From a virus: 64,000 bases of DNA. Shown here one piece after another: positions 3,511-62,122 of this stretch. The notes under the pieces were generated by a model, which had not been told where the DNA came from, did no database searches, and saw nothing but the letters and a program-made list of their open reading frames with translations. The stretch lies in UHGV virus genome UHGV-0242533; one strand, given 5' to 3'. The stretch's first letter is position 1, and every line of letters starts with the position of its first letter. The position numbers and the translations under genes were made by a program.

Positions 3511-4596
3511 TTAATCTACGAGGAATTTGAATGCGTCTTCGTGACTAACGCGACCCTCTGCGAATGCCTTGGCAACCTTAGCGTTGTCGGGCTTATTGGA
3601 AGTACGAGACTTTGCAGCATCAGACTTCACAACCTTGCGTGGAGCACCGGGACGTTTAATCTTAGCCATCACCTGTTGTTTACCTTTATCAAATTGGTAT
3701 GCTTTATGGAGAGCTAGGAAAATAGACGGACGGTTTTCCTTCAATACTTCTTCTTCAGTAGCACCTAAGTCAATTGCGTATTGCATTAAGTTTTGATATA
3801 AGTTTTCATCCCAATTTGGAATCTCACGTTTCAGAATATTAACACATTCAATGCTCTTGGCTTGGAAAGCTTCCTGCTCTTTAGCTGCTGCTTCCTGCTT
3901 AATACGGATTTGAGCCTGTTCAAGCTGTTGACGGCGAGCTGTGTACTTCTCTAGGAAACGTTTGTTTTCAACATACGCTTGAGGATCTTCTACTGCAAGC
4001 TTGTCCCAATCAAAACCGTTGTAATCTTCAATTACTCGATCTGCTTCTAAAGACGCTAATTCTAATACATCCTTCAAACCTACTACACGTTCCTCAAATG
4101 CTTCCATATGACGCTGAAGAGTTGATTCTCGTTCTGTCATATCAGCACCAGTAAGATAGCCATTAGAAAGTTCTTCAATAGTCATCTCACGTCCATCAGG
4201 AAGGGTGATAACGGTTTCGTAGTCTACATCAAAGACTTCACCTTCACCGTCAGCAGAATCATCTTCATATCCTGCATCGCTTGAGTCTTCCTCATCTGCT
4301 TCAGAGCTTTCGTCTGATTCATCAAATTCTTCCTCATCTTGTTCGACTTCGCCTTCCTCAGTATGATCTTCCCAACCATCTTCATCTTCGAACTTAAGCT
4401 CATTGCTTTCACCGAGAAGGTCGGTATCAAAGTCGAAATCGTCACCGTCTTTTTCCGGGAACTCATCGTCAATGTCCACTTCTGGTTCTTGTTCAGATTC
4501 TAATCGACCGAGTTCTTCTTTGAAAGAACCTTTCAGGTCATCTAGTTGGAGGAAAGATTTAAAATCGTTCGGGTCAATATAATTATCTTGTGGCAT
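3511..4596 (-). CDS. Scaffolding protein (361 aa)
   Basis: Highly acidic central region (D/E runs) with coiled-coil-like C-terminal half; located between portal and capsid genes. Confidence 0.6.
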   Translation of the reverse strand: MPQDNYIDPNDFKSFLQLDDLKGSFKEELGRLESEQEPEVDIDDEFPEKDGDDFDFDTDLLGESNELKFEDEDGWEDHTEEGEVEQDEEEFDESDESSEADEEDSSDAGYEDDSADGEGEVFDVDYETVITLPDGREMTIEELSNGYLTGADMTERESTLQRHMEAFEERVVGLKDVLELASLEADRVIEDYNGFDWDKLAVEDPQAYVENKRFLEKYTARRQQLEQAQIRIKQEAAAKEQEAFQAKSIECVNILKREIPNWDENLYQNLMQYAIDLGATEEEVLKENRPSIFLALHKAYQFDKGKQQVMAKIKRPGAPRKVVKSDAAKSRTSNKPDNAKVAKAFAEGRVSHEDAFKFLVD

Positions 4597-11559: not shown

Positions 11560-11588
11560 TTGACATGTTAGGTAATAAGAAGTATAGT
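11560..11588 (+). promoter_or_regulatory. Sigma70-like early promoter
   Basis: TTGACA, 17 nt spacer, TATAGT. Confidence 0.5.
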
Positions 11589-11629
11589 TATCTCATTGAA
11601 ACGAAGTATACTAACTAAAGGGGTCAATC

Positions 11630-12106
11630 ATGAATAAGGCAAACTTTGTAATCGGTGCTCTGGTATTAACCTTCGGTAGTATGGCTATCGCTGACAAGAT
11701 TGCTAGCGCTCCAGTTGCTCAAGCTGCTGTAGTTATGACTGATGCTGCTGATACATTCGTTAGCAACGCTCCTAAAGGTTGGATGGTTTGTAAAGGATTG
11801 GATTCAGATAACGTCACTACGTTGATGAAAGTTAAATTATCTAACGTAACCAATCGTGGTATGATTTTGTCTACTCGTACACTTGACAATCAGAACAATG
11901 AGGATATTCTTCTTTCCCGTAAAGACAATGACCCTGAGTTGATTACCTTTGGCGATGTGCAGACTATCAAAGGTTCTAAAGTTGTGACTAATCTTGTAAC
12001 GTATGGTACAATGCAAGAAACCATGTTAGCCACTTCCGTTTATGCTGCTGATAACAGTATTTGGACGTTCCGCTTTCAGATGGGTGATTGTGTTAAAGCA
12101 AAATAG
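11630..12106 (+). CDS. Secreted protein with signal peptide (158 aa)
   Basis: N-terminal MNKANFVIGALVLTFGSMAIA signal-like segment; RBS aaagggg. Confidence 0.55.
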   Translation: MNKANFVIGALVLTFGSMAIADKIASAPVAQAAVVMTDAADTFVSNAPKGWMVCKGLDSDNVTTLMKVKLSNVTNRGMILSTRTLDNQNNEDILLSRKDNDPELITFGDVQTIKGSKVVTNLVTYGTMQETMLATSVYAADNSIWTFRFQMGDCVKAK

Positions 12107-12109
12107 TTG

Positions 12110-12138
12110 TTGACACGGTTATAGATTGGCAGTATTAT
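12110..12138 (+). promoter_or_regulatory. Sigma70-like early promoter
   Basis: TTGACA, 17 nt spacer, TATTAT. Confidence 0.5.
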
Positions 12139-12173
12139 TACTTCATCAAGACAACATTAAAGGAATCAAGACA

Positions 12174-12503
12174 ATGAAAACCCTAATCGCATCTGCTCTT
12201 TTATCTGTAGCTGTTCTTTCAACTGTTGGATGTTCTTCTTCTCCGCGTCCTAACGGTTGGTGTGCTCTGGAAGTTGAAGGCACTTGTGTGATGCGTTGGA
12301 AAGATGGCGTTAAGGTTCCTGCTGGTGAGATTGACATGAAGTACGAAGGTGCTAGCTGTTCTAATGGTGGGTCTGTTGATGAAAAAGCCTATCGTGAGCG
12401 TGATATGAAAACACAAGCCGATTGGAAGAAGTCAGATTTTATCTCCCGAGCAACTCATTGCGGTGGCAATACTTCCGTTAAGGGTAAAGAATGGGACATT
12501 TAA
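12174..12503 (+). CDS. Lipoprotein (start at internal ATG 12174 preferred over ORF-track 12126)
   Basis: MKTLIASALLSVAVLSTVGC lipobox-type signal; RBS aagga; paralog of the 21091 gene. Confidence 0.55.
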   Translation: MKTLIASALLSVAVLSTVGCSSSPRPNGWCALEVEGTCVMRWKDGVKVPAGEIDMKYEGASCSNGGSVDEKAYRERDMKTQADWKKSDFISRATHCGGNTSVKGKEWDI

Positions 12504-12607
12504 AAAGATTAGTTTGCAATACTAGTTCTAACGTACTATCTTTGATTTTCACCGTGATTGCTACTGCAATTGCTTACTATGTTCTTGTTGTTTTGGGAGT
12601 GTGACTT

Positions 12608-12871
12608 ATGACTAAAGAGTACAGCTACACTATTCCCACCCGTAACTATGGCGATATTGACTTTTCTTACACTGACACATCTGACAAGTGTTTAATCTTG
12701 TTCGTTAGTGGTGATAATATTAATGCGGTGGAGTTTCCTGCTGTTGCTCTAATCATGGATGACGTTAAAGCTGGTCATTATCTAGCGCAACGTGGGGTTC
12801 TTCTGTCACTGGAAGAAATTAAATTGCTTAGAGTATCACTCTTTGAAGGTAAAGGCAACGATGAAGAATGA
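12608..12871 (+). CDS. Hypothetical protein (87 aa)
   Basis: ORF track; RBS gggag. Confidence 0.45.
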   Translation: MTKEYSYTIPTRNYGDIDFSYTDTSDKCLILFVSGDNINAVEFPAVALIMDDVKAGHYLAQRGVLLSLEEIKLLRVSLFEGKGNDEE

Positions 12872-13442
12872 TTATTTTTGGCGGTGCTTGTTCATTGCTA
12901 CAGTGGTGCTATTCGTCGCTGATATGCTTTACTCTTACGTTCTTTAAGGCCTGAGTGTGCTGTTTTTGTTTGTGTTTGTCGTGGGCTTCATTTCTTTAAA
13001 TTATTTACTGATTGTTGCCGCTCTGGATATTCTTAATCTCAATACTAAAGGTTGATTGCTATGTGGTTTATTAAATTCTTAGGCTTAATCTTTCTTCTTT
13101 ATTGTGCCGTAGTCATGCCTATGGTCATAATTTATCTGATTCTATAATCCTTCCTGTAAGCCTCCTAGTGAGGCTTTTCTCGTTTCTAAGGTGATTGTAT
13201 GCCTTCCTCCCTTTTAGCTCGTTGTGATGCTTCTGAGAGCGTCAAATAGTGCTTTACAAGCCTGTTTTAGTGTGTTATTCGCGTGCGCGTTCCTTTATAC
13301 CTCCCTTCCCTGAAAAAATAATCGAAATAGGTGTTGCTTTCCTCTATCACTTCCACTATCATCTATTCATCGGTTAAGCAGTACCAAGTAGACAACCTGA
13401 TAAGTCGTACGAAAAACAGGTAATCGATAAGAAATAAAAAGA

Positions 13443-13470
13443 TTGACAAGGTATCCAAACGTAGTAAGAT
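13443..13470 (+). promoter_or_regulatory. Strong sigma70-like promoter P1
   Basis: A-rich UP-like tract, TTGACA, 16 nt spacer, TAAGAT. Confidence 0.6.
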
Positions 13471-13590
13471 GGGTATCAGAAACAAAGCAAGGAAACTTGC
13501 AAATGCTCTTTAAAAACTTATCATCTTGCCCTTTCGCAAAGATTCACGCGAGATAAGGGAAAGGAATTCAAAGAAGATGATAAAAAAGAG

Positions 13591-13618
13591 TTGACAAGGT
13601 AATCCAGTGAGTTATAAT
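13591..13618 (+). promoter_or_regulatory. Strong sigma70-like promoter P2
   Basis: A-rich tract, TTGACA, 16 nt spacer, TATAAT. Confidence 0.65.
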
Positions 13619-13766
13619 GGTTGCCAGTTAGCAGATACACAGCTAACATGTTCTTTAAAAATATGACCTGATTCACTAGCCTAGCCGCTTAGTAATCCTC
13701 AATCAAATATAGCTGATTGATATATCCTCCCAATAAAGGGAACGACGAAAAAGATTAAAAAGATGG

Positions 13767-13795
13767 TTGACAGGCACTGAGAGTTAGGGCATAAT
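13767..13795 (+). promoter_or_regulatory. Strong sigma70-like promoter P3
   Basis: A-rich tract, TTGACA, 17 nt spacer, CATAAT. Confidence 0.6.
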
Positions 13796-15638: not shown

Positions 15639-15675
15639 AAGGCGCTATCTTAACGGGTAGCGCCTTTTCTTTTAT
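15639..15675 (+). terminator. Intrinsic terminator
   Basis: Hairpin aaggcgcta...tagcgcctt followed by a T-run. Confidence 0.7.
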
Positions 15676-16966: not shown

Positions 16967-17020
16967 AGCCGCCTTTGAGCGGCTTTTTGCGTTACCGCCT
17001 CCTTAATTGGAGGCTTTTTT
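16967..17020 (+). terminator. Two tandem intrinsic terminators
   Basis: agccgc-loop-gcggct+TTTTT and gcctcc-loop-ggaggc+TTTTTT. Confidence 0.65.
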
Positions 17021-17046
17021 GTATCTATTATATAGGAAACCATGAA

Positions 17047-17769
17047 ATGAAAGCATTTGCATTGTCAGCTATTCTAGTTTTATCTGCCATTAGTGCCCCA
17101 TCCTTTGCTCATTCTGACAAATGCTCACACTCTAAACAGTGTGAAGTCCAGCAGGGGCCGAAAGGTGATAAAGGAGAACAGGGTATTCAAGGCGAACAAG
17201 GTCCGAAAGGTGACAAGGGTGATCGCGGAGAGCAGGGCTTAAAAGGTGATACTGGATCGGCTGGCATCAATGGTACTAATGGCATTGATGGTAAAGATGG
17301 CATTGATGGTAAAGATGGCGCTCAAGGTGAAAAAGGTGATTCTGGTGCAGATGGTAAGAAAGGCGAAACTGGCCTAACTGGTGCAGCAGGTTTGAATGGC
17401 GTTGACGGATTAAATGGCAAAAATGGTAAAGATGCAGATATGTCTGCCGTTAATGCTAACGCCAAATCTATCAAAGCTCTGGAACAATCCACCAACAAAC
17501 GTTTTGCTTCTTTGCAAAAACAAGTAGACCGTAACCGTGATCATGCCTCTGCTGGTATTTCTGGCGTGGCTGCAATGGCTAACATCCCGCAAGTAAGTCA
17601 AGGATCTGCTTTCTCTGTTGGTGCTGGGGTAGGTGCTTACGATGGTGAATCTGCTCTTGCTATTGGTGTTAGTGCTCGTTTCAATGAAAACGTAGTAACT
17701 AAAGCATCAGTGGCAATGACTTCAGAGAGTGACGCTGTTCTGGGCGCTGGTGTAAGTTACGAGTGGTAA
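17047..17769 (+). CDS. Collagen-like protein with signal peptide and YadA-like C-terminal anchor
   Basis: Start taken at internal ATG with RBS. Signal MKAFALSAILVLSAISAPSFA; long GXX collagen-like repeat run; C-terminus SAGISGVAAMANIPQV...SALAIGVS...VTKASVAMT...GAGVSYEW resembles the trimeric-autotransporter anchor. Confidence 0.6.
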   Translation: MKAFALSAILVLSAISAPSFAHSDKCSHSKQCEVQQGPKGDKGEQGIQGEQGPKGDKGDRGEQGLKGDTGSAGINGTNGIDGKDGIDGKDGAQGEKGDSGADGKKGETGLTGAAGLNGVDGLNGKNGKDADMSAVNANAKSIKALEQSTNKRFASLQKQVDRNRDHASAGISGVAAMANIPQVSQGSAFSVGAGVGAYDGESALAIGVSARFNENVVTKASVAMTSESDAVLGAGVSYEW

Positions 17770-19816: not shown

Positions 19817-20035
19817 GTGGAAATTAAAGTAGTTGATTATCCTAAATATGCAAATGCAGAAGACGTTAAAGGTGGTGATGTTTTCTCTTACGATAGACGT
19901 TTCTGGCTGATGTTAGAAGATAAAACTCCTGATGGTTTGTGTAAGGCCGCCGATCTGAACAGTGGTTCTGTTGAAGTCTTTGGTCTATCAACAACTGTTA
20001 TGCCACGTCCTGATCTGTGTTTATCCCAAAAGTAA
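19817..20035 (+). CDS. Small protein, GDVF family (72 aa)
   Basis: Motif VKGGDVFSYDRRFWLMLED. Confidence 0.45.
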   Translation: MEIKVVDYPKYANAEDVKGGDVFSYDRRFWLMLEDKTPDGLCKAADLNSGSVEVFGLSTTVMPRPDLCLSQK

Positions 20036-20042
20036 CACCGAC

Positions 20043-20148
20043 TTATAGCCCTTGTGTTTATCAGAGGGCTATGTGAGGGTGTTCCTCATTAACTTATTAA
20101 TTCAGGCATATGCCACACCGCTAGGGAGAGCTTGCTCGAACATCCGGT
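20043..20148 (+). ncRNA. Conserved structured non-coding element, copy A (hairpin plus GCTAGGGAGAG...CTCGAACATCCG)
   Basis: Hairpin tagccct...agggcta then tgtgag; downstream ccgctagggagagcttgctcgaacatccggtg. A homologous element lies at 24293-24407. Confidence 0.35.
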
Positions 20149-20388
20149 GTTAGACTAAAACCTGTTAATTTTCGAAAGACTTTCTGATATGTAGGGGTAC
20201 GTATCGGTTTGGGATTCAGGAGACTTCCTAGGGGTAGGGAGTCTTCACCAGTTGGAATAAAAGGTAGCTCTAGAACCTGAACTCTTAGGCAGAGAAGGTC
20301 GGCAATGAATAGGCTACCAAGAAATTGGTGGCCTTTGTTGTTTTAATTAAGGGACAGCTCTTACTTAAACTAACAAGAGGAAGCTCAA

Positions 20389-20565
20389 ATGTCTAAGCAA
20401 ACAATCAAGAATACACAAGCTGGTTACTCTTATGTTAACTCTCCTTGCTGTGGTGCTCGTGTTAATCTGGTTAAGGAAGAGGTTCGTATCGTTCAGCGTG
20501 GCGCTACTGTTGTTCGTTCATGCTGTGTCTGTGGTAATGATATTTTTATCAAAGGTAAAGTATGA
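20389..20565 (+). CDS. Small zinc-ribbon protein (58 aa; below ORF-track cutoff)
   Basis: RBS aagagg; translation contains CC...CC...C clusters. Confidence 0.4.
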   Translation: MSKQTIKNTQAGYSYVNSPCCGARVNLVKEEVRIVQRGATVVRSCCVCGNDIFIKGKV

Positions 20566-20813
20566 AAAACTTTCAAGCTGCACCAATAACTAAAGTGATC
20601 GAAGTTGATGGTGTGATGATGACTGTTCCTCTGAACACTCGTTACATCGCAATTGACAAGATGGGTTATGTATGGGCTTGGAAGATTAAGCCTAGCTATA
20701 ACGCATTGTTTGATGAGTTTGTTTGTACTGGTACTTACAGTCCTACATTCTTAGGTTTGTTTGGAGAGTTTGATGGTAAGTATAAAATCATCACACTCCC
20801 TGCTTGTGCTTGA
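20562..20813 (+). CDS. Hypothetical protein (83 aa)
   Basis: ORF track; ATGA overlap with upstream ORF. Confidence 0.45.
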   Translation: MKNFQAAPITKVIEVDGVMMTVPLNTRYIAIDKMGYVWAWKIKPSYNALFDEFVCTGTYSPTFLGLFGEFDGKYKIITLPACA

Positions 20814-20820
20814 GGTTAGC

Positions 20821-20985
20821 ATGTTAAAGTGGTTTAAACGTCTATTCCATCTGCATGATTGGGAGACAATAAAAGAAATTCGTTTACACATATACAATGA
20901 GATCGGTCAAATAGAAGACACAGGTACTCGTTATATACTTCGATGTAAAACATGTGGTCATATCACCAAGAGAGATATGATCTAA
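20821..20985 (+). CDS. Small Cys/His protein (internal ATG of ORF 20761..20985)
   Basis: MLKWFKR...CKTCGH motif. Confidence 0.35.
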   Translation: MLKWFKRLFHLHDWETIKEIRLHIYNEIGQIEDTGTRYILRCKTCGHITKRDMI

Positions 20986-21090
20986 ATAGCTCTGCGCCGT
21001 TAGCTCAATTGTATAGAGCAGTTTCCTTCTAAGAAATTGGTTGGAGGTTAGAATCCTCCACGGTGCGCCAAATTGAATGAGAGGTGTGTT

Positions 21091-21390
21091 ATGTCATGGG
21101 GTGGTGTAATATCCTTAATCTGTATCTTCCTTGTCTGCATAGCCCTTACAGGCTGCGTACATAGCCGTCCTGATGGATGGTGTGCAGTAGCAGTGGAAGG
21201 TGTTTGTGTTTCTCGCTGGCATAAAGGTGAGAAGGTTCCTTCTGGTGAAATAGATATGCGCTGGAATGAAGCAACCTGTTCTAATGCTAACCCCTCTGTC
21301 AACGAAGAGAAATCTACACCGGATAATGTTGTGATTGATACAGCGTTGTGGTGTGGTGGCTCTGTAACAACAACCGGTAAGGAGTGGTGA
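21091..21390 (+). CDS. Lipoprotein, paralog of 12174..12503
   Basis: Signal plus lipobox ...CIALTGC; shared RPxGWCA-EG-CV-RW--G-KVP-GEIDM----A-CSN motif with the 12174 protein. Confidence 0.55.
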   Translation: MSWGGVISLICIFLVCIALTGCVHSRPDGWCAVAVEGVCVSRWHKGEKVPSGEIDMRWNEATCSNANPSVNEEKSTPDNVVIDTALWCGGSVTTTGKEW

Positions 21391-21391
21391 T

Positions 21392-21589
21392 ATGAATTAC
21401 ACATCTACAAAGGTGCTAATTGATTCGATTAATAGCTCCTCAGAAGCTGTACAGGAGCGTTTAATACAAGATGTTAGCAATGACATTAAGTTCTTTGTTA
21501 AGAGCCGACTGTTAGGTTCTAAGGCTTATTACAGAGCTAAAGCAGAGCTTACAAAGAGGGTGTTTCTTTTACATGGTTTGGTATATTAA
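21392..21589 (+). CDS. Hypothetical protein (65 aa)
   Basis: ORF track. Confidence 0.4.
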   Translation: MNYTSTKVLIDSINSSSEAVQERLIQDVSNDIKFFVKSRLLGSKAYYRAKAELTKRVFLLHGLVY

Positions 21590-21598
21590 GGAACTTAT

Positions 21599-21820
21599 AT
21601 GAAACTAGACTCTAAGCAGTCACTTAAAACCGTTGAGCTGTCCACGCTGCCAAACGGAAGTATTTTTGGTCATGATAAACACTTCTGGATTAAAACAGAC
21701 ATCATAGACGATGGATATATCACCTGTGTCAATCTTTGGAACGGCTCAGTGGATGGCTATCGCCCTAGCACAAAGGTGGTACCTCAGCCCGATGCAAAGG
21801 CTATAGGTTTAGTTTACTAA
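21599..21820 (+). CDS. Small protein, GDVF-like family (73 aa)
   Basis: Motif LPNGSIFGHDKHFWIKTD. Confidence 0.45.
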   Translation: MKLDSKQSLKTVELSTLPNGSIFGHDKHFWIKTDIIDDGYITCVNLWNGSVDGYRPSTKVVPQPDAKAIGLVY

Positions 21821-21829
21821 GGAGCCTGT

Positions 21830-22003
21830 ATGAGTTGTTTTGGTGGCGGTGAAATAGACGACGATTATGACATGGAATCTAACGGCACATGTCCTGACTG
21901 TGGGTGCGAAACATTTGATGGAGTGTCAGTATATCCTACCTGTAGTTATTCACCAGTGATCTGTAAAACATGTGGAGATCAACCTTGTGATGAGTCTTGT
22001 TAG
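21830..22003 (+). CDS. Small Cys-rich protein (57 aa; below ORF-track cutoff)
   Basis: RBS aaggag; CPDCGC...C...CKTCGDQPCDESC. Confidence 0.4.
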   Translation: MSCFGGGEIDDDYDMESNGTCPDCGCETFDGVSVYPTCSYSPVICKTCGDQPCDESC

Positions 22004-22232
22004 TGTGTTAATAGCCTATCTGATAGGATCAGTAGTATCAGGTGTTCTGATTAAGATTATAGATGTTAAAGGAAATCAGTGTTTCCGAGGTTGGGATGGT
22101 GAGCCAGACCTTGGAAAGATAGCAGCTATGGTTTTCTTGTGGCCTATTATTGCTGTACTATTTATAGCACTCGTAGCATGGGCTGCTCTTTGGGATTTCA
22201 TCCTTCCTAACAAAAAGTATGAGGACTCATGA
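21972..22232 (+). CDS. Small membrane protein (likely start at internal ATG 21990)
   Basis: Two hydrophobic helices. Confidence 0.45.
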   Translation: MEINLVMSLVSVLIAYLIGSVVSGVLIKIIDVKGNQCFRGWDGEPDLGKIAAMVFLWPIIAVLFIALVAWAALWDFILPNKKYEDS

Positions 22233-22650
22233 CTAAAGAATTTTTAGAGTGGTTTGGTGATACCTTCAAAGAGTATCTATTCTCTCCAGAAGACTTTGAA
22301 GAACTGAAAACCTACACTTGGTTGGCTTGGAGAGATAGCCGACGAGAGATGAATAAGTAATATCGTGAAGGATTCTTACGAGAGTCCTTTGAGATAGGAC
22401 TTCAGATCTCCTATCAAACTAACATTCATGTAACTAGCCCATAAGGGCGTTACCCTTTAATAACCCAGCCCACTAAGGGGGCGGGAGTTTAGTGCTGGAT
22501 TAGCATAACGCTTATTCCTACAAAGGCAACCGATTGTTAGATCTTACATGCAATATTAATTAATAGGATAAGGGAGGATTCGTCCCCTCCCCCTATTTTA
22601 TTGAATCTTTATCTAAGCAAGTCTTATATAAATGTTTAATTGGAGGATGT

Positions 22651-22962
22651 ATGAAAGCACGAAGAACTATATGGACTCCGATGCAGATTGAAAATCTTCG
22701 GAGACTAATCAAAGAGTACTCGGTTCAAGAGGTTGCTCAGATTATGAATGTAACGGAGAATGCAGTTAACACAGCTTGCACTAAATTCGGGATATCAAGA
22801 GCTTCAATCCGAGTTAAATGGTCTGAAGAAGAAGACCAGTTCCTTATCCGTAATGCTGGGTTCATGTCTATTCAGAGAATGGCTGACATGCTCGGTAGAA
22901 GTTATGCTGCTGTACAGAACAGGGCATGTATGCACCTTAATATTAGCCTGAAACTTAAATAG
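22651..22962 (+). CDS. Putative DNA-binding protein with two tandem HTH-like repeats
   Basis: Internal duplication: W-T-P-MQIENL...VQEVAQIM and W-S-EEEDQFL...IQRMADML. Confidence 0.4.
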   Translation: MKARRTIWTPMQIENLRRLIKEYSVQEVAQIMNVTENAVNTACTKFGISRASIRVKWSEEEDQFLIRNAGFMSIQRMADMLGRSYAAVQNRACMHLNISLKLK

Positions 22963-22970
22963 GAATCAAG

Positions 22971-23201
22971 ATGAATTTTGAGCTAGTACCAAAAAGCAAA
23001 ACACCCTCCAAGACTTTTTCTGACTTGGAGAATGGAGATGTTTTTCGTTTTACTGGTGACAATGTGGTCCCTAAATTCTGGATAAAAACAGGGGAACATT
23101 CTGCAATGTGTGTTCGGAACTCTAAAGATATTTTCTTTCCGGTCCCTCTGTCCAATACTGTTGATCTGTTCGAATCTAAACTTATTATTCAGGGTAAATA
23201 G
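22971..23201 (+). CDS. Small protein, GDVF family (76 aa)
   Basis: Motif LENGDVFRF...FWIKTGEH. Confidence 0.45.
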   Translation: MNFELVPKSKTPSKTFSDLENGDVFRFTGDNVVPKFWIKTGEHSAMCVRNSKDIFFPVPLSNTVDLFESKLIIQGK

Positions 23202-23202
23202 T

Positions 23203-23598
23203 ATGAAGATTACTCACAAGAAAGAAGAAGTGACTACGGTTGATCTCAACTCACTTCCCAGCGGAACTGTGTTTAAGTTTCCTGACAATGCAACCCTGTA
23301 TGTCAAAGGGTCTGTGTCTGCAAGCCCAAACGTTACCATCAACTCTGACAGAAGCACCATTAATATTAAAGTTAAGCATAAGAAAGAGAACATCCTCAGG
23401 GTTATGGATTTATTCAGAGCCGACGTCTTTACTTTAAAACAGTGTCCAACTTCCCATACCTACATGCTAACGAACCCGAGCAATGGTCTTAAGCCCGCTG
23501 GGGCGGTTAATCTGGGAACTGGAGAACTTCGGACAATTGCTGGTGATATGGTTGTTGATGAGAAGTTTAGTAAAGTCGAAATGATCTTAACTCCTTAG
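23203..23598 (+). CDS. Protein with N-terminal GDVF-like module (start at internal ATG 23203)
   Basis: Motif LPSGTVFKFPDNATLYVKGS; start 2 nt after upstream stop. Confidence 0.45.
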   Translation: MKITHKKEEVTTVDLNSLPSGTVFKFPDNATLYVKGSVSASPNVTINSDRSTINIKVKHKKENILRVMDLFRADVFTLKQCPTSHTYMLTNPSNGLKPAGAVNLGTGELRTIAGDMVVDEKFSKVEMILTP

Positions 23599-23735
23599 GA
23601 AAACAAATGAGACTTAAAGCATATTCTTATGACGATATGATTAACCAAAAAGGCTTCGGTCAACGACAGCCTGACGGTTCAATTATCTGGTTCGTAAACG
23701 GACAGAAAAAGGTAGCTAAATAAGCCCTCTTCTCT

Positions 23736-23756
23736 CCTCCTTTTAGTACTATGACG
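23736..23756 (+). promoter_or_regulatory. Conserved motif CTCCTTTTAGTACTATGACGC (copy 2)
   Basis: Shares the identical 17-mer with 16901-16921. Confidence 0.4.
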
Positions 23757-23830
23757 CCTCTCTGTGGGCAGCCCAATTTGCGTAGGGAATTCCCTCTACG
23801 CAGCCATGACTTTTTTAAGGAATTTCCCCT

Positions 23831-24064
23831 ATGTCTAAAGTAAGTGCAATTGATGCAATCCGTCAACCGTTCCAGTTCCAATCCAAATCAACCCAAACCT
23901 TCAGCGAACCTAAGCAAATTCGCTTGGGTGGAACAGAGAAAACTGTGTTCGATCTGGCTAAAAACAAGAGCGTTACCGTAGTTGATGGTGGCACTCTGGT
24001 TAACGTTTCTCATCGCATCCGCACTGGCAAAACTTCCAAAGATCGTGCTAAGAAAGGCGAGTAA
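23831..24064 (+). CDS. Hypothetical protein (77 aa)
   Basis: ORF track; downstream of conserved motif. Confidence 0.5.
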   Translation: MSKVSAIDAIRQPFQFQSKSTQTFSEPKQIRLGGTEKTVFDLAKNKSVTVVDGGTLVNVSHRIRTGKTSKDRAKKGE

Positions 24065-24279
24065 TGATAACGCTTGTGTCGATCGTTCACAGAATACACT
24101 ATCGTCTAGACAAAGGTAAAACCTATAAGTGCAAGAGTAAGACAGGCAATAGATGCTCTGTAGAAAACAACTCTGGTCAATGGGTGGATGTACCTTGTTG
24201 TTGGTTCAGGAAAGATTTGACTAACAAAGAAATTGACGAAATCCTTAGTGATGGTTTTGTAAAATCAAGTGATTTTTAG
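24064..24279 (+). CDS. Hypothetical protein (71 aa)
   Basis: ORF track; overlapping start/stop. Confidence 0.45.
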   Translation: MITLVSIVHRIHYRLDKGKTYKCKSKTGNRCSVENNSGQWVDVPCCWFRKDLTNKEIDEILSDGFVKSSDF

Positions 24280-24292
24280 TTGTAGTAACGCC

Positions 24293-24407
24293 TATAGCCT
24301 TCTTCGGAGGGCTATGTGAGTTATTCTGACTCAACTAACCTAATCTTAATATATTTCCCGTATGGGGCCGATGCTAGGGAGAGGAACATTCCTCGAACAT
24401 CCGTCGG
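24293..24407 (+). ncRNA. Conserved structured non-coding element, copy B
   Basis: Hairpin tagccttc-ttcg-gagggcta then tgtgag; downstream gatgctagggagaggaacattcctcgaacatccgtcgg. Confidence 0.35.
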
Positions 24408-24669
24408 ATAGATATTTTAAGAGCAGGTTATCCACAGATATTGGGTAATATCTTTTTGTATTTAAAGCTTGACTCTTTTCGGAGAGTCCTTTTTTAAATT
24501 CAACGAGAGGAAATATGTCTAAATTAGATTTAAAACTGCTAGCAGCAGCGATAGTGATTTGTGCACTAGCACTGGTAACGCAGAGAACATCTGGATTTAT
24601 TCAGTGTTTCTTTTCTGGGCAATCCACTTATCAGTGGGTTATTGACGAGTGTAAACAACAGGAGTAAGT

Positions 24670-33932: not shown

Positions 33933-33986
33933 TCTGCTTTAGCCTCTTCGAAAGAGGGGGCTAGTTTGGATAAACTGGAGAATATA

Positions 33987-61069: not shown

Positions 61070-62122
61070 TTAGTTTGCTCCAAATGCCCCTAAGACACCA
61101 CCTAAGATATTACTACCTGCTGTGGATAACCAGTTAGACTGACCTCTCTGTTGAGAAAGATTAGAACCTCCAATCATAGGACCAGCCATGCCAGATTGCC
61201 CACCTGAGTTGTTATAGGAACTCCAAGCATTCTGAGTCTGTTGGTTAGGAGAGAAAGCGCCCATACGACCTGCAATACCTAAACCAGTGATACCAGCACC
61301 TAGGAGCTGTTGTCCTACGTTAACGCCCGGAGCGGCATTCTTAATTGTATATCCAGCCATTGGACTTACACTATTTAATACATTAAGTTGGTTGTTAAGC
61401 TGATTCCATCCATACTGCTGAGAGCCAATAGCGTTCTGCCAATTGATATCAGCTTGTGCTTGAGCCTGTTGCTGTTGTAGATTGCCAGCCATAAGTTGAT
61501 TCTGAATAGCTTGTTGAGTTGCCTGAACACCTTGAGCACCAAGATTGAGATTCTGTCCAGCTAGACCAGACTGAGCACCAAGCAAACCTCTCTGGAAGTT
61601 CTGGTCTTGTTGCAGGGCACTGATTCCCATATTCTTGCCACTGATAGTACGAGCTAAGTTTGTATTAGCACCGTTCAGAGCAGCACCTTGAGCAGCAGCC
61701 CTACGGAGAGAACCTGAGTCAGAACCATTTCCGAGAGATACATTAGAAGCTGCTTTACTAGTTGCTTGAGCAAGAGCAGAATTATTTAACCCTTTACTGA
61801 AGTTATTAACACCCTCGGCTGTCACTCCACCACCATTGACAATATTCTGATACTGCTGGGCAAGGGAATTCAGTTGGTCCAAACCTTGCTGCGTGCGAGG
61901 TGTGTACATGTCAGCCAATTGCTTTTGAGTTGTAGAAGAAGCTAGGTTATTCAGAGCACCCTGTTGGTTACTGTTAAACCCAGCCAGTTGTTGGGAAATA
62001 AATCCCTGATCATTGTTCTGCATCTTCTGAGCATTAGCAACAATCTGCTTCAGCAATGCATCAACCTGAGAGGAAGGAGCCACTGTGGTTTTGCTAGAAG
62101 CTGATTTTCCAAATAAAGACAT
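61070..62122 (-). CDS. Gln/Asn/Gly-rich low-complexity virion protein (350 aa)
   Basis: N-terminus MSLFGKSASSKTT...; same composition. Confidence 0.5.
   Translation of the reverse strand: MSLFGKSASSKTTVAPSSQVDALLKQIVANAQKMQNNDQGFISQQLAGFNSNQQGALNNLASSTTQKQLADMYTPRTQQGLDQLNSLAQQYQNIVNGGGVTAEGVNNFSKGLNNSALAQATSKAASNVSLGNGSDSGSLRRAAAQGAALNGANTNLARTISGKNMGISALQQDQNFQRGLLGAQSGLAGQNLNLGAQGVQATQQAIQNQLMAGNLQQQQAQAQADINWQNAIGSQQYGWNQLNNQLNVLNSVSPMAGYTIKNAAPGVNVGQQLLGAGITGLGIAGRMGAFSPNQQTQNAWSSYNNSGGQSGMAGPMIGGSNLSQQRGQSNWLSTAGSNILGGVLGAFGAN

Follow-up and report, generated by a model that had tools for sequence, protein, structure and literature searches.

Two paralogous copies of a strongly constrained RNA fold inside the early operon of a phiEco32-like coliphage

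The virus genome UHGV-0242533 raises the question of what two similar intergenic elements might do in the middle of a long phage operon. The stretch analysed, hereafter called the window, comprises 64,000 nucleotides, and an initial annotation made from its letters had pointed to two homologous structured non-coding elements of about 110 nt, at 20043-20148 (element A) and 24293-24407 (element B). The window belongs to a phiEco32-like coliphage (Kuravirus, Gordonclarkvirinae): in a megablast search its segment 19500-25000 matched 109 phage records, nearly all of them Escherichia phages of the phiEco32 group, with 91-96% identity. In phiEco32 coordinates, genes 113 and 112 flank element A, and genes 91 and 90 flank element B. 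The results presented here demonstrate a new, strongly constrained RNA fold that is present in two paralogous copies, is specific to the transcribed strand and is internal to the early operon.

Both elements are present where the initial annotation had placed them, and the letters were verified there. The motifs GGGCTATGTGAG, GCTAGGGAGAG and CTCGAACATCCG occur exactly twice each in the 64 kb and are collinear, at 20066, 20120 and 20135 in A and at 24309, 24373 and 24392 in B. We have built a covariance model, R1, from a hand-written structure of 28 pairs and seven aligned B-type copies (those of the window, phiEco32, NJ01, KBNP1711, ECBP2, Salmonella phage 7-11 and pSal-SNUABM-01), with zero A sequences. 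Run on the 64-kb window with filters off, R1 recovered element A at 55 bits (E 1.5e-10), and its best remaining match reached 13.6 bits (E 0.33), the E-values of the models built here being rough. Since this B-only model finds A and nothing else above 13.6 bits, A and B are homologous and the window contains two copies; the match to A and the motifs occurring exactly twice thus bear out the claim of two homologous structured elements. A third hairpin, at 33937-33963, that had been proposed as a relative drops out of the family: R1 scores it at 9.4 bits (E 2.9), and it shares only the TAGCC...GGCTA stem.

A and B each begin 7-14 nt past a stop codon, as expected from the remark that they follow the end of a block of open reading frames (ORFs), and no plausible ORF was found in either region, in agreement with their description as non-coding. 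The length of about 110 nt proved too short, the conservation extending 5' into AGUAAC/AACACC and about 100 nt further 3' in each copy. The features of the two cores are the following, the third hairpin being given last.

20034-20150, + strand: core of element A, found by the B-only model at 55 bits and supported by covariation
20034-20039, + strand: 5' strand of helix P1a of A, which pairs with 20078-83
20045-20072, + strand: helix H1 of A
20074-20088, + strand: helix H2 of A
20089-20104, + strand: spacer of A (CAUUAACUUAUUAAUUCA)
20105-20114, + strand: helix H3 of A
20115-20150, + strand: helix H4 of A, with outer stem ACACCG/CGGUGU, internal loop CUAGGGA/GAACAUC and inner stem GAG(C)/(G)CUC
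24284-24407, + strand: core of element B, supported by alignment, covariance model and covariation
24284-24289, + strand: 5' strand of P1a of B, which pairs with 24320-25
24294-24315, + strand: H1 of B, with a UUCG loop
24317-24333, + strand: H2 of B
24334-24356, + strand: spacer of B
24357-24366, + strand: H3 of B
24368-24407, + strand: H4 of B, with outer stem CCGAUG/CGUCGG, internal loop CUAGGGA/GAACAUC and inner stem GAGGA/UCCUC
24337-24430, + strand: P5, a predicted long-range helix of B joining UAACCU (24337-42) with AGGUUA (24425-30) and UCUUAA (24344-49) with UUAAGA (24417-22)
33937-33963, + strand: third hairpin, an ordinary intercistronic hairpin that is not a family member

The architecture consists of a 5' hairpin domain (H1, H2 and the alternative helix P1a) and a 3' domain formed by H3 and the two-part H4 with its invariant 7x7 internal loop. 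H2 pairs as GUGAGg..cCUCA or GUGAGu..aCUCA, and H3 as GGC-AUAU-GCC or CCC-GUAU-GGG. This fold recasts part of the initial description. An AU-rich spacer is indeed present within the 40-50 nt that had been called AT-rich, but this stretch also contains two small hairpins, H2 and H3. The segments GCTAGGGAGAG...CTCGAACATCCG, found in both elements, are now read as belonging to a two-part helix, in which they make up the inner stem with the internal loop; its outer stem is CACCG/CGGUG in A or CCGAUG/CGUCGG in B. No variation is seen in the internal loop (CUAGGG / AACAUC), in the RUAU loop of H3 or in parts of the spacer.

Across 29 distinct sequences, 98.3% of the pair cells hold standard pairs, a share that falls to 34-50% if the 3' partners are shifted by 1-3 columns, and double-sided changes are observed at 11 pairs. 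A divergent A-type copy (54.9 bits) was found on L111, a 48.7-kb contig binned as a Flavobacterium metagenome-assembled genome (MAG); its H1, H2 and outer H4 are wholly different in sequence and its loop is the same. When L111 is added, double-sided changes affect 16 of the 28 pairs, five of five measures beat every shuffle and the paired cells amount to 97.9-98.3% overall, although these counts come from model-fitted alignments of related sequences, in which many of the differences are inherited differences between A and B. Independent compensatory events were seen within Kuravirus A, within Kuravirus B, in the 7-11 group and in L111. The initial annotation had made its proposal depend on compensatory base changes in homologs, and such changes exist across three lineages. 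Judged from these alignments, selection has kept every helix paired while the sequence changed. The two bases flanking the inner stem, just 5' and just 3' of it, also covary (A:G in 18 sequences, C:A in 9, A:A in 2, C:G never), with independent switches in Kuravirus A, Kuravirus B and the 7-11 group; the occurrence of the A:G, C:A and A:A combinations and never of C:G suggests an isosteric-looking, non-Watson-Crick pair at this position. G-U pairs are frequent, and because they become A-C on the opposite strand, the folded strand is the transcribed one. The + strand folds with z values of about -1.9 to -2.0 relative to shuffles; the - strand gives a z of 0.07 for B and, for A, a weaker value than its + strand.

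These data bear on the possibility that the conserved sequence works as DNA, i.e., as a replication origin, a DnaA site or a recombination boundary. Element B contains, in its 3' arm, a perfect DnaA box (consensus TTATCCACA) at 24428-24436, beside AT-rich DNA, which is kept in 18 of 18 distinct B sequences, and DnaA-box-like sites are mildly enriched in the whole window, where 28 sites with at most one mismatch were counted versus 18.3 expected, a number reached by 1 of 100 shuffles. Perfect boxes in the window number three (459 and 24428 on the + strand, 61121-61129 on the - strand), roughly 0.5 being expected by our own estimate for a 9-mer in 64 kb on both strands. In addition, conserved intergenic DNA can mark the boundary of a module, and gene insertions are found right after A. 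However, the helices keep their pairing through two-sided changes, their G-U pairs would turn into A-C on the complementary strand, and both the folding energy and the model matches are strand-specific. Moreover, the DnaA box is missing in A and in L111, and in the GC skew nothing at B resembles an origin, the curve having only a shallow dip at 22-25 kb. A DNA-level role thus appears highly improbable and is disfavoured for the shared core.

The 5' domain can pair in two ways. Helix P1a, which excludes H2, can form in A as well as in B when the 5' flank (AACACC / AGUAAC) base-pairs with the 5' strand of H2 and its loop. Each alternative is supported by one compensatory event: ACACC/GGUGU to ACAUC/GAUGU in ECBP2-type A for P1a, and GAGU/ACUC to GAGC/GCUC in ECBP2-type B for H2, the latter disrupting P1a. 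In B, the predicted helix P5 would make H3 and H4 the arms of a three-way junction; it is found by RNAalifold on the whole B region and in the single-sequence minimum free energy folds of five orthologs, and three pairs of its inner part have changed on both sides.

Alternative pairings with one compensatory event each are what a regulated cleavage site would be expected to show, and the element might serve as punctuation for the processing or stability of the operon mRNA. H1, together with P1a or H2, would cap the upstream mRNA, RNase E would cut in the AU-rich spacer or RNase III in P1a-H1, and H3/H4 would protect the downstream 5' end. The location of the copies just behind a stop codon agrees with this idea, as do the two structured domains that flank a single-stranded AU-rich spacer and the lack of a U-run after H1. 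In fact, the sequence after H1 is GUGAG and the terminator scan did not report this hairpin, so that the statement that these hairpins are not classical terminators holds. Copies of the 5' half only (hairpin, hairpin, CAACUAA) at other gene boundaries, namely at 22364-22468 of the window and in the phages Escherichia ECO319P1 and Aeromonas BUCT695, point in the same direction. The first of them, which is the 13.6-bit match mentioned above, lies in a 290-nt intergenic region of the early operon (22361-22650) that holds two hairpins followed by CAAACUAAC, more hairpins and a terminator-like site at 22572-22591. The others are also weak matches (E 0.05-0.3; hairpin, GUGA..., CAACUAA / AACCUA), at 20333-20407 in ECO319P1 and at 20358-20435 and 3888-3959 in BUCT695; in both phages one of them is found at the same position, just upstream of a gene of about 1.2 kb that is annotated as ATP-grasp in BUCT695. 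The 5' half of the element may therefore be a separate, more widespread intercistronic module.

A generic protection of mRNA ends, however, leaves unexplained the invariant 14-nt internal loop, the isosteric covarying pair and the conservation of nucleotides across phage families, and the weakness of the 5'-half matches has to be kept in mind. P1a (6 bp), the internal loop and H1 (9 bp) give about 15 bp, which is short for RNase III, whose signals are near-continuous duplexes of about 20 bp or more. The early RNase III signals of T7 (Dunn and Studier) are homologous hairpins with internal loops between early genes, which have no U-runs and leave a protective 3' hairpin. Element copies are likewise homologous hairpins with internal loops between early genes and lack U-runs, but their duplexes are shorter (about 15 bp in P1a plus H1, 6+5 bp in H4), and their conserved part is a large symmetric loop and not the stems. 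We consider it unlikely that processing or stability explains the element.

We have also compared the element with known RNA families. The Rfam search that the initial annotation had recommended (Rfam 15, whole window, gathering threshold) yielded tRNA-Arg only, and both regions searched against Rfam at E<=10 gave chance-level scores of 9-18 bits, compared with thresholds of 45-219. The element is not a described Rfam family. ARAGORN likewise reported only the tRNA-Arg in the window, and no tRNA, tmRNA or tRNA-like structure in the elements. Inspected by eye, the K-turn, the loop E/sarcin-ricin motif, the 11-nt tetraloop receptor (CCUAAU...UAUGG), the T-loop, CsrA GGA sites and the cores of self-cleaving ribozymes either misfit the conserved nucleotides or are absent from A. 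The gp36 promoter consensus TAATGTATA has no match with at most one mismatch in either element. Compared with the boxA consensus GCUCUUUA(ACAA), A has CCUCAUUAAC (8/10), 7-11 has ACUCACUAAC and B has an extra base, and the local alignment to rrn remains within the range of shuffles. A likeness of CUCGAACAUCCGG and CUCAUUAAC to the rrn leader was discarded, the E. coli leader and the 16S-23S spacer scoring below 8 bits with R1 and the local alignments falling within shuffles (p 0.05-0.8). An antiterminator pairing with the terminator downstream of B was discarded too, the best partner of the terminator 5' half being inconsistent over five orthologs (z about -1 to -2.4).

By blastn, the A region is present in 99 phage records and the B region in 104. 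The B region shows at least 99% identity in 21 of these 104 records and 95-99% in 46, whereas the surrounding 5.5 kb never reach 99% and mostly show 90-95%. B was also found, at 69-74% identity, in the Salmonella phages 7-11, SE131 and pSal-SNUABM-01, all members of another family (Grimontviridae). There it occupies a syntenic position, after the phi32_92 homolog and before an annotated terminator and the amidoligase module, and the match is restricted to intergenic DNA, the COOH.NH2 ligase gene about 3 kb downstream being only 49% identical as protein. Phage 7-11 contains one copy only in the 50 kb (40000-89916) that hold its leftward early/non-structural cluster. Across phage families with E. 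coli and Salmonella as hosts, conservation of the nucleotides outlasts that of the proteins encoded nearby, and the element therefore probably has as its partner a conserved component of the host or a phage protein of very high conservation.

Pattern scans of viral, metagenome and genome collections were filtered with R1, the initial loose DNA pattern giving mostly chance matches, and they provided further Kuravirus and 7-11-like contigs. The scans of bacterial genomes gave no copies besides two MAG contigs, i.e., L111 and a second one that scores like a Kuravirus B copy (147.9 bits). The sole detectable gene that L111 shares matches the Srd-like gene of 7-11 and ECO319P1, and its early region is phage-like. 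No full copy was detected in Proteus P59, BUCT695 and ECO319P1 (30 kb each) with a broadened model, R2, and filters off.

The + strand of the window carries the genes from about 11.5 to about 54 kb, according to ORFs and GC skew. Consensus sigma70 promoters on this strand cluster at 11560-13795 only, and the promoter scan found no sigma70 promoter scoring at least 10/12 within 17.5-26 kb of the window. In the SU10 paper, all listed early promoters stand at the beginning of the early cluster, the first middle promoter precedes CDS68 and the early genes are CDS69-125; the pattern predicted for the window agrees with the SU10 promoter table. Because of this clustering of promoters and of the SU10 early promoters lying only at the early-cluster start, elements A and B are internal to a sigma70 early operon of roughly 27 kb, at 6-10 kb from the early promoters (19 kb in 7-11). 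This operon contains strong + strand intrinsic terminators at 15639, 16967, 16997, 20311 and 24471, the last two of which are separate classical terminators downstream of A and B found by the terminator scan. The segments that follow each core are these.

20151-20250, + strand: 3' arm of A, a linker followed by H5 (20184-20207) and H6 (20219-20246), each with the loop UAGGGGUA
20311-20344, + strand: intrinsic terminator after A, AGGCTACCAAgaaaTTGGTGGCCT plus TTGTTGTTTT, from the terminator scan
24408-24443, + strand: B-specific 3' arm, AGGTTATCCACAG, invariant in every B copy and including the DnaA box at 24428-24436
24471-24497, + strand: intrinsic terminator after B, GACUCU-UUUCG-GAGAGUC plus C U6

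A strong terminator follows every B copy, those of the Salmonella phages included, and in 7-11 it is annotated as such. Most relatives carry at least one small gene inserted between A and the segment of the 20311 terminator, and the blastn matches there come in two pieces. As no sigma70-like promoter is predicted from the B terminator to the first middle promoter about 20 kb downstream, this terminator must be read through.

Downstream of each of the three consensus sigma70 early promoters (13443, 13591 and 13767) lie a small hairpin and a sequence resembling boxA.

13505-13515, + strand: boxA-like sequence GCTCTTTAAAA
13650-13660, + strand: boxA-like sequence GTTCTTTAAAA
13886-13897, + strand: perfect rrn-type boxA GCTCTTTAACAA

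The same modules of hairpin plus boxA are present in L111 upstream of its copy (351 and 580). These promoter-proximal modules look like a Nus-factor antitermination leader of the rrn/lambda type, and we have found no mention of them in the literature consulted on these phages. After the last of the early promoters, between 13796 and 14716, about 920 nt precede the first large early gene (14717) without a + strand ORF of at least 35 aa or any Rfam match at gathering threshold. This long untranslated leader may hold further RNA elements.

Another possibility is that A and B control elongation in cis, in the manner of put or nut sites: the nascent element would bind the elongating RNA polymerase, directly or via Nus factors or a phage protein, and would promote read-through of terminators between immediate and delayed early blocks. 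In lambda, cro, nutR and tR1 present the layout of gene, element, terminator and next genes. The arrangement of gene(s), element, terminator and next genes resembles that layout, and in every lineage B lies 60-75 nt upstream of a strong intrinsic terminator; the need to read through this terminator points the same way. The two similar copies per genome recall putL and putR, a conserved host target, RNA polymerase for instance, would agree with the conservation across phage families, and H2 followed by CUCAUUAAC / CUCACUAAC is loosely like the modules of hairpin plus GCUCUUUAAC in the phage's own leader. In addition, the authors of the 7-11 study considered an undefined antitermination strategy highly likely. 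But the copies are found 6-10 kb (19 kb in 7-11) from the early promoters, beyond the strong terminators at 15639, 16967 and 16997, and canonical boxA modules are already present promoter-proximally. Besides, A has no following terminator in most relatives, the similarity to the rrn leader is not significant, no conserved antiterminator pairing was found, and there are relatives with similar long early operons that lack the element. This cis control is, in our opinion, a serious but rather doubtful explanation.

The resemblance to HK022 putL and putR comprises the two similar copies per genome, the location in early operons transcribed by host RNA polymerase and upstream of terminators, a multi-stem RNA with conserved bulges or internal loops and no obvious requirement for a dedicated protein. 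HK022 put is an RNA of about 70 nt with two stems, placed just downstream of an early promoter, that binds the zinc-binding domain of the RNA polymerase beta' subunit without other factors and suppresses termination. The present element is set apart from put by description: it measures about 115 nt, has four helices and an additional arm of 100 nt, and lies 6-19 kb away from promoters. With lambda nut and rrn boxB-boxA it shares a hairpin followed by a short single-stranded motif (CUCAUUAAC versus GCUCUUUAAC) and the two copies per operon; on the other hand, its boxA match is 7-8/9, with an insertion in B, and the H4 loop, its most conserved part, has no counterpart in nut.

The terminator behind B is also compatible with a riboswitch-like attenuator, in which the H3/H4 junction would sense a metabolite or a protein, set the formation of the terminator and regulate the amidoligase/glutamine amidotransferase module downstream of B. 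The invariant loop within variable helices is an aptamer-like pattern, the 5' domain has alternative pairings, and the terminator is followed by genes for a COOH.NH2 ligase, an amidoligase and a glutamine amidotransferase. However, the partner of the terminator 5' half varies among orthologs and is no further than about 1-2.4 sd from shuffles, the genes that follow A are unrelated small ones and a tRNA, the bacterial copies are limited to two MAG contigs, and no Rfam riboswitch matches. We regard an attenuator of this kind as very unlikely.

What distinguishes the two copies is the 3' arm. The A arm is kept at 96-97% even in phages that match only query 1-218, 1-237 or 1-279. Its hairpins H5 and H6 show compensatory changes, and its loop motif UAGGGGUA is present twice within 37 nt, L111 having UAGGUGUA at the homologous position. 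The B region was compared by blastn with 5,426 complete E. coli genomes, and one match per genome was found in 5,423 of them. This match lies 14-55 nt upstream of the nrdD start codon and is antisense to nrdD, with 29 of 31 positions identical in the core (phage TTTTAAGAGCAGGTTATCCACAGATATTGGG versus E. coli TTTTAAGAACAGGTTATCCACAGAAATTGGG), and two of the DNA mismatches are G-U compatible in the antisense sense. The RNA of 24408-24443 is predicted to pair with the nrdD leader from -45 to -9 through 33 bp at -48.3 kcal/mol, compared with -16.2 +/- 3.2 for shuffles (best -26.6), and the complementarity reaches up to the nrdD Shine-Dalgarno sequence. Extended complementarity near the ribosome-binding site of a target, as expected for an antisense small RNA (sRNA), was found for B only. 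Phage-borne nrdD genes do not have the host leader motif. Ribonucleotide reductase (RNR) genes were found neither in the window nor in the 7-11 stretch checked; P59 has nrdAB, and BUCT695 and ECO319P1 have nrdD, all three lacking the element.

Our preferred reading, held tentatively and with less than even confidence, is that A and B are paralogous genes for a stable structured non-coding RNA, embedded in the early operon like the nearby tRNA-Arg, with a shared scaffold and different 3' arms. The invariant loop and H3 would be the surface on which a partner docks, either one conserved among enterobacteria or a phage protein that is itself conserved, and docking would render the RNA body stable. 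Cleavage in the AU-rich spacer might free the RNA from the polycistronic transcript, and/or its 3' end might be set by the downstream terminator. The effector would be the variable 3' arm: that of B would offer the 36-nt stretch able to form 33 bp with the host nrdD leader, partly masked by P5 in the precursor, and that of A would display two UAGGGGUA loops on its hairpins. The hairpin-boxA modules behind the early promoters would meanwhile shield long untranslated stretches from Rho, as in rRNA operons. In favour of this proposal we count the covariation, the A:G/C:A pair, the conservation above that of the coding flanks, the absence of an ORF and of an Rfam family, the operon context with its boxA modules, the B terminator in all lineages, the nrdD pairing and the RNR pattern.

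Several observations speak against it. The A region has no match in the E. coli genomes and no detectable complementarity to the host. A strong mid-operon terminator, with 20 kb behind it that have to be expressed, fits a role in cis at least as well. The anti-correlation with RNR genes concerns n=5 genomes. A sigma70-like site inside B (CTGACT-18-TATATT) is found in Kuravirus B only and is not kept in A or 7-11. A literature search for Kuravirus transcriptomics returned nothing relevant, the RNA ends and the stable species being putative. Lastly, the nrdD complementarity overlaps the strongest DnaA-box 11-mer, GTTATCCACAG, which we take to be also the sequence of R1 and R4 of oriC, and the B-arm similarity could reflect a shared DnaA site at the DNA level. 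All four enterobacterial nrdD leaders compared carry the invariant CUGUGGAUAACCUGUUYU, itself a DnaA box, just upstream of the Shine-Dalgarno sequence and a second DnaA box further up, and these paired boxes suggest a DnaA- or RNA-level control of the anaerobic RNR. Nevertheless, the similarity between the B arm and nrdD appears to fit antisense selection better than a DnaA site, because diverged phages retain it and it extends well past the 9-bp box in both directions.

The proposed stable RNA has its closest counterparts in processed or 3' untranslated region-derived sRNAs of the Hfq type and in phage antisense riboregulators. It begins right behind a stop codon, a Rho-independent terminator with a U-tail closes B, and a single-stranded stretch of it is complementary to an mRNA leader near the Shine-Dalgarno sequence. 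In contrast to Hfq-type sRNAs, the 33-bp complementarity of B far exceeds the usual seeds, the conserved structured body is large and the terminator lies mid-operon. T4-type PeSL cassettes, composed of an early promoter and a stem-loop between ORFs, are not known for covarying multi-helix folds. The element is similar to them as a repeated intergenic stem-loop with an AT-rich promoter-like stretch and gene insertions at its boundary, but it differs in its covarying multi-helix fold and in having the promoter-like match only in Kuravirus B. We have thus filed the element as a new family within the known kinds of phage early-operon RNA elements, put, nut and processed sRNAs being its nearest likenesses. 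A bolder claim, which we consider unlikely though worth stating, is that the three-way-junction core of H3 and H4 would be an undescribed scaffold from which phiEco32-like and 7-11-like phages build early, operon-embedded riboregulators with exchangeable 3' arms, the B arm being an antisense regulator of the host nrdDG leader in phages lacking RNR, or else would represent a third class of RNAs able to reprogram the host RNA polymerase during elongation, at intrinsic terminators.

Other features of the operon were recorded along the way.

20994-21070, + strand: tRNA-Arg, operon neighbour and sole tRNA in the window, found with Rfam and ARAGORN

The gene directly 3' of A (20389-20565) encodes a 58-aa zinc-ribbon-like protein with two Cys pairs and differs from phiEco32 gene 112. 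The annotation of gp136 in 7-11 reads 'Q-like antiterminator'; the protein has a zinc finger of the CxxCxGxG type and is unrelated to the genes adjoining A. A 264-aa ORF of the early + strand cluster (16975-17769) contains 9-nt periodic repeats at 17150-17434, with GGT/GGC at each third codon, which suggest a collagen-like Gly-X-Y stretch. The homology search with a neighbouring 398-aa protein gave matches dominated by an acidic low-complexity pattern.

Phages phiEco32 and 7-11 are model systems for the redirection of host transcription by phages, and their long sigma70 early operons hold strong internal terminators. The element is a concrete RNA candidate for the antitermination strategy that the 7-11 study leaves to be defined. 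It is among the most conserved sequences common to these phage groups, and its covariation has the quality of a curated RNA family, with no entry in Rfam. If the scaffold for riboregulators were true, a virulent phage would be targeting the nucleotide supply of its host with an RNA; if the action on polymerase were true, the very small set of antiterminator RNAs would be widened. Either way, the element is ready for RNA-family databases and for phage annotation.

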